Source: Octopus sinensis (Eukaryota). From it: a stretch of DNA of 64,000 nt. Position numbers and translations under genes: made by a program. The first letter of the stretch is position 1. Each line of letters begins with the position of its first letter. The stretch covers positions 43,586,001 to 43,650,000 of the forward strand of contig NC_042997.1 of NCBI RefSeq assembly GCF_006345805.1, written 5' to 3'. Below, piece by piece: positions 9,040 through 61,994 of the stretch. The notes beneath the pieces are model-generated. The model had not been told where the DNA came from. It saw only the letters and a program-made list of their open reading frames with translations, and searched no databases.

Positions 9040-10790
9040 TTTAAAAAGGATTGACTTAACTCTTCACAAAGGTAAACTGTCAAGACAAAGAGCACGATTC
9101 GATCGTAATAGATAATTTATTGGTTGAACAATATTTCGACAGTAAGTCTGTCTTTGTCAAGTACAAAATAAAAGGTGATAAAAATTCAAAATTATAGAAA
9201 TTTAAATTCAAAGTATGAACGAGAGCAACCAGCGTCCACGCGTTGATGGAATGACATCATCGGTCTTTAAGTTACAATTTTATAACAGGCGAAAAGAAAA
9301 AGACAGAAAAAAAGACAGAAAAATAGGAAAGAAAAATGAAAAGGAAAAAGAAGAATATTTAATCAAACAGTTTTGTATGAATTTGATGATATTCTCCTGC
9401 CATTTTATTCATTCCTCCAGGGCGTGATGTTAATAACCCGCAAACATATTTCTCCTCATGCATTTTGAGAAGTGAAAGTGAAGCAGATTCAGAATATTTT
9501 CTGAGAATATGCACTTTCAAGTCTTCTTCAAAATTGCTGCCGCTTGAAATGAAATGTTCGGCAAGTTCTGTCGAACTACTGTTATTGTGCCTCACGTCGA
9601 ATCTGTGCCCATTAAACCTTTTGTTTAATTGTTCTGTTGTGCAACCAACATAAATCAAGTTGTGTTTCGTGCATTCTGCCGCGTACACCAAATGGAATCT
9701 CTACATGTCCTACCTTCTGAATAAATCATAACATTTCTGTTATGATTCCTGATGGAATTCACTTCACTCATGTTGTTGCATAATGAACAGGGCTTACCTC
9801 CCTTGCGGCTGTTTTTCAGAGTACAGCGTACAGATACTCCAATGTTCGTATTTTTTAAAGTCAGAAATAGAGGTCAATAATTCTCTTATATTCTTATTCC
9901 TTCTAAAGGCTACAATAGGCGGCTGAGGAAATATCTGCTTGAAACGAGGATATTTTTTCGTCACACGCTGGTAATTTTCATGCAACACGTTTGAAATGCC
10001 AGCGAAATGTCGGTGTCACTTAATCACGAAAGTAATTTTGTAATCTATCGTATTGTGTTTGCTAAAATTATGCGTGAAGGTTTGACAATCTTTGCTAATC
10101 TTAGCTATTTCATTTGTTATTTCCTTTAATCTTGATTCACTGCAACCGCATTTGACATAATGATATACAAAAGCATTTGCATGTTTCCAGTAATCCCCTA
10201 TGTCAATATATATCCGTTTTATCCTCAAAAGTTGGGATTTCGGATTTGACCGAATAATATGATGTGTATGATCGGAGAAGCGGTGGAGATAAATGTGGGA
10301 TGACGTGAGCTTGCAAAATAACTGTCCCTAGAAAACTTGACTTTTGTGTCCAAAAATTCAACGGTAGTTTTTGGAAATCTAGAACCTAAATTTTATGTTG
10401 GACTTAAAGCCATAGTTTTTAGCATAACAGTCACAGAAACGCAAGAAGTCCCTTAAGCTATTCTGTGATCCTTCCCAGACAAAAAAACACGTCATCAATG
10501 AACCGTAACCAGAGTATTGGTTCATGACCATGAAGGGTTTTGAATGTGTTCAGTAACTGCCTCGAATTTCGTCATGAGGATATTAGCGAAATTTATTGCC
10601 AAGGGGTTACCCATGGCGCAACCCTTCGTCTGGTGGTAAAATCTTTGTCTAAACTTCGTTGTGTTACTTTGTAACACAAACCTCAATATTCTAGAGAGAA
10701 AATTTGATAGAATACTTTTGTTTGACCGCTTTTCGAAGGCATCTATACCATATATTTTTTGCAATTTACTAAACAATTATCATCGTTTTG
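9040..10790 (-). mobile_element. Penelope-like element, degenerate (RT + GIY-YIG endonuclease)
   Basis: QTKGCAMGNPLAINFANILM, LRFIDDVF, PPIVAFRRNKNIRELL; GIY-YIG-like VYAAECTKHNLIYVGCTTEQLNKRFNGHR in ORF 9359-9691. Confidence 0.92.
9126..9166 (-). ncRNA. Degenerate hammerhead-like motif at the Penelope 3' end
   Basis: Minus strand TTGACAA-A-GACAG-actta-CTGTC-GAAA-TATT: stem II intact, core decayed. Confidence 0.4.
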
Positions 10791-33188: not shown

Positions 33189-34101
33189 ATACATATACAT
33201 ATGAGTGCATATACTCACACTCCTATACATATAAAAATATACATATACATAATGATGTAAATAAATAATATAAATTAGTAAACATATATACGTTCCACAT
33301 TCAATGTTTCAGTTCTTCAACTTAATATTGTGATAATAAACATACACATATTAGTACCTAGATGCAAATATACATAGTCAATAGTACATTATATTACTTC
33401 CTACTAATTTCCAAAGTGTCATTAAAGTTAGCATCATTATCGTTGTCAATACCATTAATGCTACCATTATTATCATTCATAATATTATTAATAACGCTTA
33501 CATTAGGATCCAAAGTGGCACATATGTATGTCCGGGTTCCAGTTAGTAATTTTCCTTATGACATAAATACACTATTGGATTTGAATTTAAATTATCATTG
33601 TCTTCCTCACGGTTGGTTCGCCGAGAGCCGCCCGACCTCCACCACACCGCACAAGAAAAACATACACATCCACATCCAACCCTAAACCCACACGTCCACA
33701 TAAAAACCCACACACACATGCACACACACGTGAATACATTCCGACATATCCACACACTCACTAGATTGCAGAGTGTATGTCTGTCATCGCATGGCTTATA
33801 GACAAATCAGTACAGGCAGCAGTGTCTATACACTAACACATACACTCACACGCACATCCGCATATACTCATAGATATTAATACACTTTCATATACTGTAT
33901 CAGGGAACATTCGCACACACATATATACATATTTAAATATATATCTGCGCACTCATACGTACAAATAAAACCTATACTTATATCCACCCATGAATAAATA
34001 TTTGCATATACATATATACATATCCAATAAGCAAAATACGAAGACAGGTGAAGAAACAACAAGCAGGCGTATTAGTTTGGCGCTCGAGAAGAATGGAAAG
34101 G

Positions 34102-34139
34102 TCTTTGACGTTTCGAGCCTACGCTCTTCGACAGAAAGA
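34102..34139 (-). ncRNA. Minimal type I hammerhead-like motif, variant core CUGUCGA-A
   Basis: Minus strand TCTTT-CTGTCGA-A-GAGC-gtag-GCTC-GAAA-CG-TC-AAAGA. Confidence 0.6.
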
Positions 34140-34235
34140 TTGAGAGGTAAAAAAAAAACGGAGAGAAAAAAACGTGTAGGGATTAAAGGTTCAGCATGAT
34201 GAACTATATATATATGTATGTATATGTATGTGTAT

Positions 34236-34834: not shown

Positions 34835-34872
<38 letters not shown>

Positions 34873-34875
<3 letters not shown>

Positions 34876-35177
34876 TCGTAGGAGCACTAGGAATGATCAA
34901 GAAGGGAACCGAAAATTATATGAGAATGATCCCTGCAAGAAGTGCAAAAGATTGTCTTAACTGGTACATCACACGTATTGAGAAGAGCATTGTCGATGTG
35001 AGAACTGTTGCTGCTCATGTATTTTAATTTAACTTAAAAAAAAAAAAAATTTTTAATGAACGAACTATTGAGTTTGGTTTAATGGCCTACCAATGTATAC
35101 TATGAGTTTCTTTGCCCTAGGAGTCGGGAAGACACTCGGCAAGAAATGGAAGCAAATTTGAAAGAAGAAAAAAAAAG
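34873..35177 (+). mobile_element. RLE (Dong/R4-like) LINE, short 5'-truncated copy in (TAA)n
   Basis: IVGALGMIKKGTENYMRMIP plus 3' UTR; (TAA)n on both sides; near-identical to 39690-40007. Confidence 0.9.
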
Positions 35178-35229
35178 TAATAATAATAATAATAATAATG
35201 ATGATGATGACGACGACGACGACGATGAT

Positions 35230-39541: not shown

Positions 39542-39586
39542 CATCCTTGCACAGGGGCCATGCTAATTTTCTCTGTATCGTTCCAA
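39542..39586 (-). pseudogene. U6: U6 snRNA fragment
   Basis: Minus strand TTGGAACGATACAGAGAAAATTAGCATGGCCCCTGTGCAAGGATG has 2 mismatches to the metazoan U6 ACAGAGA box/ISL region as I recall it. Confidence 0.9.
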
Positions 39587-39659
<73 letters not shown>

Positions 39660-42791: not shown

Positions 42792-43059
42792 TCTCATATA
42801 AATGAATAATTACCTTCCATAATTGTTCATTTTCGTCTATTTACTTCATGAAAGAACAACGAACAGGTGTATTAGTTTAACTCCTGGGAAGATTCGAGCC
42901 CAGACTTTTCGACAGAAAGAATTGAGAGGGAAAATAAAACAGAGAAAGAACGAAAAAAACAAAAAAATAAACGGAAAGAGAAAAAAGATGAGAATGGCTT
43001 AACGGTTCAACATGTTTACGCCGACCTGTAAACACGAGCACATATATATATATATATAA

Positions 43060-43098
<39 letters not shown>

Positions 43099-43159
43099 GT
43101 AATTATGTGCACTTGTTTGCACGTTGGTATCAACAAAATTATAACGATTAAATGAGAGG

Positions 43160-43540
43160 AAGCACTCCGTCGGTTACGACGACGAAGGTTCCGTTTGATC
43201 CGAATCAACGGAACAGCCTGCTCGTGAAATTAACGTGTAAGTGGCTGAGCACTCCACAGACACGTGTACCCTTAACGTAGTTCTCAGGGATATTCAGCGT
43301 GACACAGAGAGTGACAAGGCCGGCCCTTTGAAATACAGGTACAACAGAAACAGGAAGTAAGAGTGAGATAAAGTTGTGGTGAAAGAGTACAGCAGGGATC
43401 ACCACCATCCCCTGCCGGAGCCTCGTGGAGCTTTTAGGTGTTTTCGCTCAATAAACACTCACAACGCCCGGTCTGGGAATCGAAACCGCGAACCTACGAC
43501 CGCGAGTCCGCTGCCCTAACCACTGGGCCATTGCGCCTCC
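43160..43540 (-). mobile_element. SINE family A, full length
   Basis: Reverse complement of 885-1268. Confidence 0.93.
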
Positions 43541-44047
43541 ATTTTTCTATATTTCCCCATCATTTCCGCCTCCACTAACGATTACATGTAGCAAATAAAT
43601 GAGAGGAAGAAAAATAATAATGTTTGATATGACCTTTATTGTATCGGTACAAGGTAAGATACAACTTCTTCGAGTTGTTGTTGTGCACAGATTTTTTGGA
43701 GTTCTATTATCCATTCTGTAAAGAAGTCAAGTTCATTTGTGAGTAAGTGTTAGAAGACTGATGGAAGAACGAGAGAGAAAGAGTAAAAGAATTATATTCG
43801 CGAGTTGACAAGTAGAGGGGGTGACAGTTGTATAGTAAAGCCGTGACAAATCATACGCGAAGTGCTCTTTAGGGCGGCGGCGGCCAATGAAAGCGGTGAA
43901 AGAAGCAATGGAGGTTGAAGTGAGTTTAGGTACTGTATTTATACATGTTAGAAAGCTGGCTGTAGATCGGAAAAATGGGAAGTAATTGAGTTTATCTTTC
44001 TTGAACTGTATTTAATCCAAGAATGTTCATTTAATCAAAACACGTTA

Positions 44048-44436
44048 TTCTTTACTCTTTTACTCTTTTACTTGTTTCATCCATTTGACTGCGGCCATGC
44101 TGGAGCACCGCCTTTGGTCGAACAAATCGACCCCAGGACTTATTCTTTATAAGCTTAGTACTTATTCTATCGGTCTCTTTTGCCGAACCGCTAAGTTACG
44201 GAGACGTAAACGCACCAACATCAGTTGTCAAGCGAGGACAAAGACAGACACACAAATACATACATATACATACGACGGGCTTCTCTCAGTTTCCATCTTC
44301 TAAATCCACTCACAAGGCTTTGGTTGGCCCGAGGCTATAGTAGAAGACATTTGGCAAAGGTGCCATACAGATGGATTGAACCCGGAACCATGTAGCTCGA
44401 AAGCAAGCTTCTTACCACGTAACCACTCCTGCGCCT
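44048..44436 (-). mobile_element. SINE family B (diverged) whose 5' end runs into the satellite
   Basis: Tail TCTTTACTCTTTTAC, body and head homologous to 26177-26622. Confidence 0.88.
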
Positions 44437-47400
44437 ACGGCCACTCCTGCGCCTACTGCCACTCCTGCGCCTACAGCAACTCCTGCGCCTACAGCCACTC
44501 CTGCGCCTACGGCCACTCCTGCGCCTACGGCCACTCCTGCGCCTACTGCCACTCCTGTGCCTACTGCCACTCCTGCGCCTACGGCCACTCCTGCGCCTAC
44601 GGCCACTCCTGCGCCTACAGCCACTCCTGCGCCTACTGCCACTCCTGCGCCTACAGCCACTCCTGCGCCTACGGCCACTCCTGCGCCTACAGCCACTCCT
44701 GCGCCTACGGCCACTCCTGCGCCTACGGCCACTCCTGCGCCTACAGCCACTCCTGCGCCTACTGCCACTCCTGCGCCTACAGCCACTCCTGCGCCTACAG
44801 CCACTCCTGCGCCTACAGCCACTCTGCGCCTACGGCCACTCCTGCGCCTACAGCCACTCCTGCGCCTACGCCACTCCTGCGCCTACGGCCACTCCTGCGC
44901 CTACCAGCCACTCCTGCGCCTACGGCCACTCCTGCGCCTACGGCCACTCCTGCGCCTACAGCCACTCCTGCGCCTACTGCCACTCCTGCGCCTACGGCCA
45001 CTCCTGCGCCTACGGCCACTCCTGCGCCTACGGCCACTCCTGCGCCTACTGCCACTCCTGCGCCTACAGCCACTCCTGCGCCTACAGCCACTCCTGCGCC
45101 TACAGCCACTCCTGCGCCTACGGCCACTCCTGCGCCTACAGCCACTCCTGCGCCTACGGCCACTCCTGCGCCTACGGCCACTCCTGCGCCTACAGCCACT
45201 CCTGCGCCTACTGCCACTCCTGCGCCTACAGCCACTCCTGCGCCTACGGCCACTCCTGCGCCTACAGCCACTCCTGCGCCTACGGCCACTCCTGCGCCTA
45301 CGGCCACTCCTGCGCCTACAGCCACTCCTGCGCCTACTGCCACTCCTGCGCCTACAGCCACTCCTGCGCCTACAGCCACTCCTGCGCCTACAGCCACTCC
45401 TGCGCCTACGGCCACTCCTGCGCCTACAGCCACTCCTGCGCCTACAGCCACTCCTGCGCCTACGGCCACTCCTGCGCCTACAGCCACTCCTGCGCCTACG
45501 GCCACTCCTGCGCCTACGGCCACTCCTGCGCCTACAGCCACTCCTGCGCCTACTGCCACTCCTGCGCCTACGGCCACTCCTGCGCCTACGGCCACTCCTG
45601 CGCCTACGGCCACTCCTGCGCCTACTGCCACTCCTGCGCCTACAGCCACTCCTGCGCCTACAGCCACTCCTGCGCCTACAGCCACTCCTGCGCCTACGGC
45701 CACTCCTGCGCCTACAGCCACTCCTGCGCCTACAGCCACTCCTGCGCCTACGGCCACTCCTGCGCCTACAGCCACTCCTGCGCCTACGGCCACTCCTGCG
45801 CCTACTGCCACTCCTGCGCCTACAGCCACTCCTGCGCCTACAGCCACTCCTGCGCCTACGGCCACTCCTGCGCCTACTGCCACTCCTGCGCCTACAGCCA
45901 CTCCTGCGCCTACAGCCACTCCTGCGCCTACAGCCACTCTGCGCCTACAGCCACTCCTGCGCCTACAGCCACTCCTGCGCCTACAGCCACTCCTGCGCTA
46001 CAGCCACTCCTGCGCCTACGGCCACTCCTGCGCCTACGGCCACTCCTGCGCCTACGGCCACTCCTGCGCCTACAGCCACTCCTGCGCCTACGGCCACTCC
46101 TGCGCCTACGGCCACTCCTGCGCCTACAGCCACTCCTGCGCCTACAGCCACTCCTGCGCCTACAGCCACTCCTGCGCCTACAGCCACTCCTGCGCTACGG
46201 CCACTCCTGCGCCTACAGCCACTCCTGCGCCTACAGCCACTCCTGCGCCTACAGCCACTCCTGCGCCTACAGCCACTCCTGCGCTACGGCCACTCCTGCG
46301 CCTACAGCCACTCCTGCGCCTACAGCCACTCCTGCGCCTACAGCCACTCCTGCGCCTACAGCCACTCCTGCGCCTACTGCCACTCCTGCGCCTACAGCCA
46401 CTCTGCGCCTACGGCCACTCCTGCGCCTACTGCCACTCCTGCGCCTACAGCCACTCCTGCGCTACAGCCACTCCTGCGCCTACGGCACTCCTGCGCCTAC
46501 AGCCACTCCTGCGCCTACGGCCACTCCTGCGCCTACTGCCACTCCTGCGCCTACAGCCACTCCTGCGCCTACAGCCACTCCTGCGCCTACGGCCACTCCT
46601 GCGCCTACTGCCACTCCTGCGCCTACAGCCACTCCTGCGCCTACAGCCACTCCTGCGCCTACAGCCACTCCTGCGCCTACAGCCACTCCTGCGCCTACAG
46701 CCACTGCGCCTACTGCCACTCCTGCGCCTACGGCCACTCCTGCGCCTGCAGCCACTCCTGCGCCTACAGCCACTCCTGCGCCTACGGCCACTCCTGCGCC
46801 TACAGCCACTCCTGCGCCTACGGCCACTCCTGCGCCTACTGCCACTCCTGCGCCTACGGCCACTCCTGCGCCTACAGCCACTCCTGCGCCTACAGCCACT
46901 CCTGCGCCTACAGCCACTCCTGCGCCTACAGCCACTCCTGCGCCTACGGCCACTCCTGCGCCTACAGCCACTCCTGCGCCTACGGCCACTCCTGCGCCTA
47001 CAGCCACTCCTGCGCCTACAGCCACTCCTGCGCCTACAGCCACTCCTGCGCCTACAGCCACTCCTGCGCCTACGCCACTCCTGCGCCTACAGCACACTCC
47101 TGCGCCTACGGCCACTCCTGCGCCTACAGCCACTCCTGCGCCTACGGCCACTCCTGCGCCTACGGCCACTCCTGCGCCTACGGCCACTCCTGCGCCTACA
47201 GCCACTCCTGCGCCTACGGCCACTCCTGCGCCTACAGCCACTCCTGCGCCTACAGCCACTCCTGCGCCTACAGCCACTCCTGCGCCTACGGCCACTCCTG
47301 CGCCTACAGCCACTCCTGCGCCTACAGCCACTCCTGCGCCTACAGCCACTCCTGCGCCTACAGCCACTCCTGCGCCTACGGCCACTCCTGCGCCTACAGC

Positions 47401-49054
47401 CACTCCTGCGCCTACAGCCACTCCTGCGCCTACAGCCACTCCTGCGCCTACAGCCACTCCTGCGCCTACGGCCACTCCTGCGCCTACAGCCACTCCTGCG
47501 CCTACAGCCACTCCTGCGCCTACAGCCACTCCTGCGCCTACGGCCACTCCTGCGCCTACAGCCACTCCTGCGCCTACAGCCACTCCTGCGCCTACGGCCA
47601 CTCCTGCGCCTACAGCCACTCCTGCGCCTACAGCCACTCCTGCGCCTACGGCCACTCCTGCGCCTACAGCCACTCCTGCGCCTACAGCCACTCCTGCGCC
47701 TACGGCCACTCCTGCGCCTACGGCCACTCCTGCGCCTACAGCCACTCCTGCGCCTACGGCCACTCCTGCGCCTACAGCCACTCCTGCGCCTACAGCACCC
47801 TCCTGCGCCTACGGCCACTCCTGCGCCTACAGCCACTCCTGCGCCTACAGCCACTCCTGCGCCTACAGCCACTCCTGCGCCTACGCCACTCCTGCGCCTA
47901 CAGCCACTCCTGCGCCTACAGCCACTCTGCGCCTACGGCCACTCCTGCGCCTACGGCCACTCCTGCGCCTACAGCCACTCCTGCGCCTACAGCCACTCCT
48001 GCGCCTACGGCCACTCCTGCGCCTACTGCCACTCCTCCTGCGCCTACGGCCACTCCTGCGCCTACGGCCACTCCTGCGCTACAGCCACTCCTGCGCCTAC
48101 GGCCACTCTCCTGCGCCTACGGCCACTCCTGCGCCTACAGCCACTCCTGCGCCTACAGCCACTCCTGCGCCTACAGCCACTCCTGCGCCTACAGCCACTC
48201 CTGCGCCTACAGCCACTCCTGCGCCTACGGCCACTCCTGCGCCTACAGCCACTCCTGCGCCTACGGCCACTCCTGCGCCTACGGCCACTCCTGCGCCTAC
48301 AGCCACTCCTGCGCCTACAGCCACTCCTGCGCCTACAGCCACTCCTGCGCCTACGGCCACTCCTGCGCCTACAGTCACTCCTGCGCCTACAGCCACTCCT
48401 GCGCCTACGGCCACTCCTGCGCCTACGGCCACTCCTGCGCCTACAGCCACTCCTGCGCCTACTGCCACTCTGCGCCTACGGCCACTCCTGCGCCTACGGC
48501 CACTCCTGCGCCTACAGCCACTCCTGCGCCTACGGCCACTCCTGCGCCTACGGCCACTCCTGCGCCTACAGCCACTCCTGCGCCTACAGCCACTCCTGCG
48601 CCTACAGCCACTCCTGCGCCTACAGCCACTCCTGCGCCTACGGCCACTCCTGCGCCTACAGCACACTCCTGCGCCTACAGCCACTCCTGCGCCTACAGCC
48701 ACTCCTGCGCCTACGGCCACTCCTGCGCCTACGGCCACTCCTGCGCCTACAGCCACTCCTGCGCCTACAGCCACTCCTGCGCCTACAGCCACTCCTGCGC
48801 CTACAGCCACTCCTGCGCCTACAGCCACTCCTGCGCCTACGGCCACTCCTGCGCCTACGGCCACTCCTGCGCCTACAGCCACTCCTGCGCCTACTGCCAC
48901 TCCTGCGCCTACAGCCACTCCTGCGCCTACAGCCACTCCTGCGCCTACAGCCACTCCTGCGCCTACAGCCACTCCTGCGCCTACAGCCACTCCTGCGCCT
49001 ACAGCCACTCCTGCGCCTACAGCCACTCCTGCGCCTACTGCCACTCCTGCGCCT
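44423..49054. repeat. 18-bp satellite, about 257 units by length
   Basis: Unit GCCACTCCTGCGCCTAC[A/G/T]. Confidence 0.98.
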
Positions 49055-49174
49055 AGTTGATCCCCATAAATTTCTCTGTGTTAGTATTGAGAACAACTCG
49101 TCGAAAAATCTAGACTGCGTTTCAAACTTGGCTAAGAATCTAGAAAGCTGTGTGTGTGTGTGTGTGTGTGTGTG

Positions 49175-49400
49175 ATCATCACCGTCAAGAACTCTAAACT
49201 GATGCTGCTAGTCGTCGGAGTGCCACTCGAGATGCTTTCGTAGTCACCTGTCGCCACTGGTCTTTGTTCTTTCTCAAGTGCCTGCACTCTTCGCTCCATG
49301 TCAGCCGTGAGTGTCCAGCTCTCTCCCTCCCACGCTTATATGAGGATCGAACACACCGGGGGGGGGGTGCTTGGACACTCTGGGTCCTGTTGCAAAACTA
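49175..49400 (-). mobile_element. RTE LINE 3' remnant
   Basis: Minus translation GRERAGHSRLTW...KDQWRQ resembles the RTE GR...W...DR..WR terminus. Confidence 0.45.
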
Positions 49401-52189: not shown

Positions 52190-53765
52190 CATCCTGTACC
52201 TATACCTTAGCACCATCATGGCATCTGATGTGGCTTTTTAAACCAGACAATGTTCTGAAAAGACACCCACATAGGTTACACATCCGATTCGGACCACCGA
52301 GAGCTGCAGATAAGTTCTGATCTTTGTGGAACTTAGAATGTCTTTTGAGGCCTCCGTTAGATTTGCAAACCTTCTGGCATACACCGCATTTAAAGGTATG
52401 CACAGACATATAGGCAGAATAGTTGTTGGAGGTTCGTTTTCCATGGGTTCACAAATGAGACTTGAGCCCAGCAAAAGAAAGGCATGGTCTGTCACAAACT
52501 GTGCATACAAAAATATCATTGTCATTCACCTTCTCGATCGTAATATTCATCCTTAGATCTCTTTTGAATCTTACATGCGTTATCCTGGCCTCTTCAAATG
52601 CTTTCACTCCACTCCACACTTTTGTTCGCCATCCAATTCGATCCAATTCGATCCGAAGCAAGTGACTTTATAGTAGTTCTTATGCTGTCCTTAAACCCTT
52701 TTTTAGGTCAACGCCGATAGCGTTTCCCCTCATAAATCACAATAAATCAGCTGTTTCGGCATGCGTTCATCCACCATTCTAACAATATGGTCACACCATC
52801 ACATTTAGTTCCTCAAATTCATAGCGTTAATTGAGGTGATGCCTGCAGATGCAAGGACATCTGTGTTTGTAGTAAAAGAACTCTATTTAATGTTTAAAAT
52901 GCGATGCAGGCATTTTTGGTGAAATTGTTCTAACAATTTAAAATGCCTTTCATAACAAGTCCAAGTTTCCCAAGAGAACAACAGGGATGGTAAGACAAAT
53001 GATTTGTGCCAGCTTTGTATTCTTATTTATGTGTCGCTGGCACCAAACATGTGACTCCAAGCCACCATTTGCTAATGCTTTTGCTGCCCTTTGAATTCGC
53101 AGATGTAGTTCTCTATCAAGATTTCCATCATTTTGTACAGAGCCTCCAAGGTAGATAAACGAATCGACAACCTCAAGTAACTTACCCTTAACAAAAATTT
53201 GGGTGGGGTTACAAACAGTACCACACGCAGGTTAATGCATTACAACTGTTATTTTCAAGTTGATGGTCAAACCCAAATCATCACAAGCTGAGTCAAATGC
53301 AGATACAAGAGAATGCAGACCTGTTTCAGAATGACTGACAAGATCACAATCGTCAGCGTACAAAAGTTCCCTAATGAGTGAAGTAAAAACCTTTGTTTTG
53401 AATTTCAGTCTGGTCACATTAAAAATATTCTCTGTTGGTCGATATTCTATGTAAATACCCTTCTCAAAGTTTTGAAAAGCATGTGACAACACAACAGCAA
53501 AGTATATTGCAAAGAGGGTGGGTGCATCAAGGTCTCCTTGCTTTACACCATTTTCCACGGCAAAGGCATCAGAGAGCCTACCACCAAAGTTAACTCTAGC
53601 TTTCATATCTTGATGCAAAGCCCTGATCATGTTTACAAATTTTGGGGGGCAACCTATTTTCCTTAGAATTAACCACAGAGCATTTCGATTAACAGTATCG
53701 AATGCTTTGCTCAAATCAACAAAGCAGTGGTATAGAGCAAGATTCTGTTCAATGCACTTTTCTTG
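52190..53765 (-). mobile_element. RTE-clade LINE, RT to 3' end, with three C2H2 fingers
   Basis: FVDLSKAFDTVNR, GVKQGDLDAPTLF, LLYADD; C-terminal CxxC-x12-H-x3-H repeats. Confidence 0.93.
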
Positions 53766-53843
53766 GGAGAGAAAAAACAGAAAGAAAGAAGAATAAGAGA
53801 GGGAGAATAGAGATAGTTGTAGAGTGCGCATCGGAATTATTAA

Positions 53844-54311
53844 GATAAAACTTTCTTGGAAATGGATGCATGGCGTTCGATCATATAATAATATAATATA
53901 ATATAATATAATATAATATAATATAATATAATATAATATATATATGTGTGTGTGTGTGTGCATATATACATACATATATGTACATACCTACATATATATA
54001 TATATGTATATATACATAAGTATATGGGTAGAGGACGTTAAAAAAACGTGAACAAAATGAAAAGCGAGAACATAAAATAACAAAAACATATATACATATA
54101 CGACTATTTTAACGAAGTCGCATCTTGTCCCAACGTTCGAAACGCGGAGTAGATAAAACAGGGGACAACTGATGAAGGGATTGTTCTTTATGTTGCTTGT
54201 CTCGCTTCTCCATTTGTTTATATCGTGGTTCGAAAAAAAAGTTCGTTTTCCATGTTTTGTTTTTTATTTTCTCGTTTATCATTTTGTTCACGTTTTTCTG
54301 ACGTCCTGTGT

Positions 54312-54860: not shown

Positions 54861-54930
54861 CATCAGGACAGATCGTTAGCCACTAGACACACTTTTTTCT
54901 CTCCTTGTTTCTCTCCTTTTTCCTGTGTCC

Positions 54931-54966
54931 CTTTCTGTGGAAGAGCGTAGGCTCGAAACATAAAAT
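54931..54966 (+). ncRNA. Minimal hammerhead-like motif, variant core CUGUGGA-A
   Basis: CTTT-CTGTGGA-A-GAGC-gtag-GCTC-GAAA-CA-TA-AAA; homologous to 34102-34139. Confidence 0.5.
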
Positions 54967-55050
54967 ACTTTTTCTATCCCTGAGCGTTATACTAATACAC
55001 CTGTTTGTTTTGTACACCTGTCTTCGTCTTTTGTTTTTTTCGTAAACTCT

Positions 55051-61602: not shown

Positions 61603-61994
61603 GGGAGGCGCAATGGCCCAGTGGTTAGGGCAGCGGACTCGCGGTCATAGGATCGCGGTTTCGATTCCCAGACCGGGCGTTGTGAGTGTTTATTGAGCGA
61701 AAACACCTAAAGCTCCACGAGGCTCCGGCAGGGGATGGTGGTGATCCCTGCTGTACTCTTTCACTACAACTTTCTCTCACTCTTACTTCCTGTTTCTATT
61801 GTACCTGTATTTCAAAGGGCCGGCCTTGTCACTCTCTGTGTCACGCTGAATATCCCCGAGAACTACGTTAAGGGTACACGTGTCTGTGGAGTGCTCAGCC
61901 ACTTACACGTTAATTTCACGAGCAGGCTGTTCCGTTGATCGGATCAACCGGAACCCTCGTCGTCGTAACCGACGGAGTGCTAGAAGAAGAAGAA
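61603..61994 (+). mobile_element. SINE family A with (AGA)n tail and TSD
   Basis: GCACTGACCC at 61592-61601 and GCATTGACCC at 61995-62004. Confidence 0.93.

Follow-up and report, generated by a model that had tools for sequence, protein, structure and literature searches.

The window analysed here, a stretch of 64,000 nucleotides from Octopus sinensis, contains a 38-base hammerhead-like motif at positions 34102-34139. The sequence-only reading of this DNA had already pointed to the motif, and our analysis confirms it, with the addition that the motif lies on the minus strand, a point which that reading had omitted. The motif and its parts are as follows; copy 1 denotes the copy of the host repeat in which it resides, and numbers such as C3 or H17 are hammerhead positions.

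34102-34139, minus strand: minimal hammerhead motif of type I carrying U at position 6 (sequence, descriptor scan with shuffles, position map)
34140-34180, minus strand: U-rich tract upstream of the motif (sequence and copy alignment)
34135-34139, minus strand: stem I 5' strand, pairing with 34106-34102; 5 bp in copy 1, 4 bp in most family contigs
34128-34134, minus strand: core C3-U4-G5-U6-C7-G8-A9, with C3 at 34134, U6 at 34131, C7 at 34130 and A9 at 34128
34127, minus strand: extra unpaired A between A9 and G10.1 (sequence)
34115-34126, minus strand: stem II with a 4-nt loop; strands 34126-34123 and 34118-34115, 4 bp, closed by G10.1-C11.1
34108-34114, minus strand: G12-A13-A14 (34114-34112) followed by palindromic ACGU (34111-34108)
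34108-34111, minus strand: the palindromic ACGU itself, positions 15.1, 15.2, 16.2 and 16.1, which would form stem III between two molecules (nested dimer structure)
34107, minus strand: H17, the predicted cleavage-site nucleotide; C in copy 1 (position map)

When the window was scanned with a hammerhead descriptor that left positions 6 and 7 free, 34102-34139 was the single match, against a chance expectation of 0.05 matches on average (5 of 100 block-wise dinucleotide shuffles had one). The motif agrees with the hammerhead consensus at C3, U4 and G5, at G8 and A9, at G12, A13 and A14, and in the A15.1-U16.1 pair. At position 6, the consensus A is replaced by U, and alignment bears out the earlier statement that all three copies of the repeat in the window share this U. 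The motif also has the features of the minimal hammerheads of Penelope-like elements, namely the extra nucleotide after A9, the G10.1-C11.1 pair, a palindromic 15.2-16.2, a short stem I and a U-rich 5' flank. Rfam covariance models returned no hammerhead family at E-values up to 10 on 34020-34200. Neither the scan nor inspection by eye revealed a canonical core in another register, or any hammerhead on the plus strand. A second occurrence of the five bases at the start of stem II lies 39-41 nt downstream, at 34081-34085 (minus strand) in copy 1 and at about 54982-54986 (plus strand) in copy 2; the 3' flank could therefore be a competitor for the 3' strand of stem II. This recurrence may be due to chance, or may represent an off-switch that is removed by cleavage.

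The motif belongs to a dispersed host repeat. It had been claimed that two homologues of the motif occur in the window; they do exist (BLASTN E-values of 1.6e-27 and 4.7e-9), although their decay was understated, both copies being more degraded than described. The length of the host repeat, previously put at 200-300 bp, measures about 180-200 bp. The three copies are as follows.

34029-34207, minus strand: host repeat copy 1, about 180 bp, between TA-type microsatellites (alignment); 3' end near 34029-34032, with contig pieces ending at 34029 and 34032
54862-55045, plus strand: host repeat copy 2; motif at 54931-54968 with U6, G7, a broken palindrome (ACAU), A17 and a 3-bp stem I
42845-43040, minus strand: host repeat copy 3; core starting at 42915 with U6, a stem II mismatch and a 19-nt deletion

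The alignment of the copies extends over about 180 bp, beginning with about 35 nt of weakly conserved sequence, continuing with the U-rich tract and the motif, and ending in an AU-rich tail. As this alignment shows, the 19-nt deletion in copy 3 takes away stem III and the cleavage site as well as stem I's 3' strand. TA-type microsatellites lie on both sides of copies 1 and 2 and on the 5' side of copy 3. The 5' ends of the copies are unequal, copy 3 extending further upstream than the others. A profile built from the three copies detected no fourth copy below an E-value of 3.5 in the 64-kb window. There is no tandem array, the arrangement by which retrozymes are defined, in the window, where the three copies are solitary. 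Of the class assignment proposed earlier, the architecture of a Penelope minimal type I hammerhead with a palindromic stem III is supported, whereas the retrozyme reading attached to it is unsupported. The family may consist of 5'-truncated ends left by an autonomous Penelope-like element and not of an independent non-coding element. A Pfam search of 142 complexity-filtered stop-to-stop frames of at least 70 aa revealed no Penelope domain beside the three copies, and translation of the repeat in search of mis-called proteins yielded nothing. Scans of metagenome contigs and viral contigs with the family pattern gave 0 matches. The three copies share an in-frame stop upstream of the U-rich tract, but we judged it too weak to count as an indication that an ORF ends there.

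The 64-kb window as a whole is rich in SINEs and microsatellites. A young repeat of about 380 bp is present in four copies that are 96-98% identical (2-382, 884-1268, 43158-43541 and 61604-61981), with a 5' end that appears tRNA-like by eye, and older SINE-like copies are numerous across the window, some of them in tandem at 11.4-13.4 kb. The reverse transcriptase (RT) fragments nearest to the host repeat copies (PF00078; 35603-36004 on the plus strand and 53235-53987 on the minus strand) are LINE-like by reading of their translations and unrelated to the motif. At 39542-39614 (minus strand), the 5' 73 nt of U6 snRNA score above the Rfam gathering threshold and adjoin a repeat that is common to 34836-35208; this piece is possibly a U6-LINE chimeric retrocopy. 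The stretch at 44300-49200, about 5 kb, is GC-rich (60-68%) and strongly skewed, with very long open frames in three phases, and is probably a minisatellite array. Fragments of C2H2 zinc fingers occur in two frames at 52203-52667 (minus strand).

Elsewhere in the window, a Penelope-like element and a second hammerhead lie next to each other.

[quoted passage not shown]
9124-9166, minus strand: second minimal hammerhead, of a different family, with a U3-A8 pair, canonical A6 (9160), extra A and palindrome; about 200 nt past the end of the GIY-YIG ORF, with a U-rich tract between

The element shows 43% identity over 110 aa to an RT plus GIY-YIG protein, and the order at 9.1-10.8 kb is stop codon, U-rich tract, minimal hammerhead and microsatellite. 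A descriptor allowing both core pairs found exactly two motifs in the window, 34102-34139 and 9124-9166. A more decayed stretch near 9260 (minus strand) is possibly hammerhead-like as well. The similarity between the family carrying the U6 motif (hereafter, the U6 family) and the family at 9.1-10.8 kb is confined to low-complexity sequence, the U-rich tract; therefore, the comparison indicates the layout of such elements in this genome and not the parent of the U6 family. No Penelope ORF linked by sequence to the U6 family was found. We also conducted an ORF-anchored search for other Penelope loci as a baseline for position 6, which gave five loci from 74 pattern matches, and 0 from 57 in viral contigs; the 3' sequences of those five loci, in contigs that mostly end early, contained no convincing hammerhead. 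Microsatellite targeting has been reported for some Penelope clades (PMC8557442). Penelope-like elements are reported to make up 6.83% of the O. vulgaris assembly (PMC13282606), and the available passages of the main text of that paper make no mention of hammerheads.

To characterise position 6 across the family, we used 4 of 24 public runs, which carry three organism labels (A for X1, B for X2 and X14, and D for X7). All four runs consist of assembled contigs, which were mapped on 33930-34215, a region with one U6 copy, at 80% likeness, and differences were listed from 3% upwards. The numbers of contigs mapped were 7,052 for X1, 8,969 for X2, 3,305 for X7 and 1,538 for X14. X14, of which an RNA origin is no more than a guess, served solely for allele shares. 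Among the differences listed at 3% or more, no base other than U occurred at position 6 (34131) in any of the four runs. A6 is below 3% in X14, because there is no A>T place in its tally, and G6 is below 3% in all four runs, because the sole A>C place is explained elsewhere. C6 in all runs, and A6 in X1, X2 and X7, are absent from the best-supported differences listed, which there include some with a depth below 100. No class of loose ends was found at 34129-34131 among the best six per run. Depth is flat from 34130 (N7) to 34137 and amounts to 1.16-1.32 times the depth at H17, which argues against a large class of clipped contigs. The contigs of the four runs thus support the earlier proposal that U6 is the family state and not a product of decay.

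The summed depth peaks on the motif, where it reaches 5.5 million in X1, compared with 20-54 for the single long pieces listed in X1 and X2. A crude division of depths gives about 100,000 copies, which is not a proper copy number; the three copies in 64 kb, equivalent to about 47,000 per Gb, are of the same order. Among the contigs that map, nearly all sampled copies of this very abundant short repeat carry U6.

Of the 36 positions from 34102 to 34137, those listed as polymorphic in all four runs number three: N7, H17 and one base of the loop. At N7 (34130), U accounts for 28-43% and A for 26-29%, the rest being mainly C (28-46%). At H17 (34107), A accounts for 66-69% and U for 26-30%, with 1-5% remaining, and the first base of loop II is polymorphic between G and A at 3-9%. 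X1, X7 and X14 have G17 at less than 3%, with both or none of their G>C places accounted for; one such place is unseen in X2. The consensus hammerhead is reported to leave N7, H17 (not G) and the loop bases free (PMC3088659), and the family follows this rule, with N7 varying freely and H17 being A, C or U and not G. The probability that all three listed sites would fall on the seven free positions by chance is 0.005, and that the two variable sites of 15 junction positions would be 7 and 17 is 0.01, both values being post hoc. The N7 shares separate X1 and X2 (U 28%) from X7 and X14 (U 41-43%), against the organism labels, since X2 and X14 share one.

Stem II is unvarying at 3% or more among the differences listed, and is uninformative on covariation either way. 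At 34138, which lies outside these 36 positions, loose ends give C in 377 and U in 113 contigs of X1. Either base can pair with G34103; the change from C-G to U-G in stem I is one-sided. The fifth stem I pair is private to copy 1; stem I of the family is therefore 4 bp long. Given that contig depth over-weights shared variants, the observed pattern describes subfamilies and not single copies. Subfamilies that are related cannot count as independent events, so that the evidence comes down to a handful of substitutions. The fact that the listed variation of the family falls solely at positions that a hammerhead leaves free suggests that constraint persisted after A6 became U. We infer that U6 would be older than the N7 and H17 subfamilies, and that the source elements would later have changed only where a hammerhead allows.

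Next, we consider folding and the published activity of position-6 variants. In the isolated 38 nt, the hammerhead fold is possible and lies 0.9 kcal/mol above the minimum. In the repeat context of copy 1, the ViennaRNA probability is 0.04-0.06 for stem II and near 0.001 for stem I; stem II reaches 0.43 in the context of copy 2. The double hammerhead dimer is sterically nested, with an energy of -13.9 kcal/mol versus -23.8 for the dimer minimum (ViennaRNA). A natural A6C core, that of phage Bcep176, is reported to cleave slowly in Mg2+ and better in Mn2+ (PMC3088659, PMC7151607), at a rate below 0.1 per min (PMC3088659). When A6C was placed in a fast hammerhead, the rate was 3.6e-6 versus 0.3 per min at 0.3 mM Mg2+ (PMC7151607). 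A full pairwise scan found low activity for all CUGA-turn mutants except the C3-G8 swap (PMC9901934); the passages of that paper on the scan give no value for A6U. Minimal hammerheads with A6 also cleave poorly as dimers (PMC4209133), and the hammerhead of an anole Penelope element is reported to cleave and yet to be dispensable for insertion in vitro (PMC11167929).

Given that the published changes at position 6 are strongly negative, we favour a slow, dimer-dependent cutter that acts in Penelope-derived source elements. With slightly better than even confidence, we read the 38 bases as a minimal hammerhead motif of type I in which U6 is fixed throughout a family of very high copy number. On this reading, the family likely represents the 3' pseudo-LTR end of a Penelope-like retrotransposon, and the motif is predicted to cut RNA slowly and only as paired copies. 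The source elements would be transcribed as tandem or partial-tandem RNA, in which two motifs would pair by their ACGU palindromes and swap stem I strands, forming a double hammerhead that would cut after H17. U6 would have arisen before the split of the N7/H17 subfamilies and would lower the rate, as A6C does elsewhere, with the fold still under selection. Reverse transcription would start at the 3' end and stop early, and pieces of about 180 bp would thereby be scattered into TA microsatellites. The solitary genomic copies, including 34102-34139, are probably inert. A stronger claim, namely that this is an active U6 hammerhead, derived from Penelope, present in the order of 100,000 copies in several related species, and cutting in its source elements after the loss of A6, with a rescue perhaps provided by dimer geometry, by a protein partner or by Mn2+, we put forward only tentatively and consider doubtful.

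It is also conceivable that U6 killed catalysis in the founder of the family, and that the sequence was kept for another job (as an RNA signal for a retrotransposon protein, or as a DNA element in the pseudo-LTR) or simply rode along with a successful family. The strong loss of activity caused by changes in the CUGA turn (PMC9901934, PMC7151607) agrees with a dead founder, as does the anole element, cleavage-dead mutants of which insert normally in vitro and which shows no RNA-seq ends at its site in the passages of PMC11167929 concerned. Naiad elements are likewise reported to spread without canonical hammerheads (PMC8557442), and the hammerhead fold is unfavoured in the repeat context (ViennaRNA). 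However, the three-state variation falls exactly at N7 and H17, and G17 is absent where it could be counted, which are the rules of cleavage. Plain hitch-hiking would not place subfamily differences at these two positions, although constraint at the level of the fold could do so. We therefore regard loss of catalysis in the founder as rather unlikely. Another question is whether U6 is the state of one large subfamily only, with common A6 sisters that were missed because two adjacent mismatches, close to where the conserved block ends, were clipped in mapping. The mapping was indeed made against one U6 copy at 80% likeness, contigs that mapped only in part numbered 828, 1,200 and 1,425 in the DNA-scale runs (range given as 824-1,425) and 284 in X14, and 563 loose-end rows and 35 variant rows lie beyond those listed. 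Yet a contig with A6 and C7 would carry just one mismatch, and such contigs amount to less than 3% in X14, the best six loose-end classes per run include none at the core sites concerned, depth at positions 3-7 is not below that at position 17, and the window copies carry U6 in three of three cases. Such missed sisters are very improbable.

The remaining reading is that of a retrozyme-like element about 200 nt long, non-autonomous and non-coding. Transcripts of its tandem arrays would be cleaved into unit-length pieces, which would become circles and be re-inserted through Penelope proteins. The repeat is short, non-coding and very abundant, such families have been described as having many solo monomers and have been argued to originate from Penelope pseudo-LTRs (bioRxiv 10.64898/2026.07.22.740005), and the alignment of the three copies continues beyond the U-rich tract for about 35 nt in the upstream direction. 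Set against this, the 64 kb contain no tandem copy, the copies differ in their 5' ends, copy 3 reaching further upstream, and no head-to-tail joint occurs among the joints listed, which is a weak test in short contigs. Moreover, animal retrozymes are reported to carry canonical type I hammerheads in tandem, whereas the minimal ones go with Penelope (PMC7229834). We consider a retrozyme-like element quite improbable, and the label "retrozyme" is unsupported for the U6 family.

As far as the searched literature goes, the U6 motif is likely to be a previously unreported core variant within the Penelope minimal hammerhead kind. Among the matches listed, searches of the literature and supplements found no natural U6 core, no hammerhead A6U and no sequence of the U6 family; figures that exist only as images were outside their reach, and the novelty is bounded to that extent. 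A literature search found no report of an octopus hammerhead among the papers listed. Penelope hammerheads may not need to cleave, given their poor cutting in vitro and their dispensability for insertion in one reconstituted system. A family that was amplified without A6, and that still varies only at the free positions N7 and H17, is a natural test of this need. If U6 dimers cleave, the hammerhead consensus and the counts based on descriptors would need to be widened, and position 6 would be tunable, perhaps in a metal-dependent manner. If they do not cleave, the motif would be conserved for something other than catalysis, which bears on how the elements replicate. Should the active U6 hammerhead prove true, it would be a natural working core variant that is invisible to every census based on CUGANGA.

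Among known systems, the motif most resembles the minimal hammerheads of Penelope-like elements (Cervera and De la Pena 2014, PMC4209133). Those described there are of type I, have a palindromic 15.1-16.1 in place of stem III, an extra base between A9 and G10.1, a G10.1-C11.1 pair, a short stem I and a U-rich 5' flank, occur mostly as solitary dispersed copies, and have A, U or C at H17. The extra A and the palindrome, both described in the sequence-only reading, are ordinary for this class and no additional oddities. From the published consensus (U-rich flank, CUGANGA-H, G..C stem II, GAAAN, palindrome, NUH and AU-rich flank; PMC4209133), the motif differs at position 6 only. A6 is present in all 56 of the representatives in Fig. 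S3 of that paper, the descriptor of which fixes the core; thus, strict CUGANGA searches would miss the U6 motif, as had been predicted. The sole core covariant reported in the same source is U3-A8, and the 4-bp stem II found here is at the short end of the range. The Penelope hammerheads sit in the pseudo-LTR of an element encoding RT and GIY-YIG (PMC4209133); no such ORF lies beside the three copies of the U6 family in the window.

The hammerhead of phage Bcep176 (Perreault 2011, PMC3088659; Naghdi 2020, PMC7151607) is similar in having a natural pyrimidine at position 6. However, it is a single phage ribozyme with C6 and demonstrated activity, while here U6 is fixed in a high-copy animal repeat that has no evident tertiary contacts and whose cleavage is predicted. 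Animal non-LTR retrozymes (Cervera and de la Pena 2020, PMC7229834; Li et al. 2026, bioRxiv 10.64898/2026.07.22.740005) are also short, non-coding repeats with type I hammerheads, possibly derived from Penelope. The same two papers define them by tandem units, of which two or more in succession contain a complete hammerhead, and by circular RNAs, whereas the copies described here are solitary, minimal and non-canonical.
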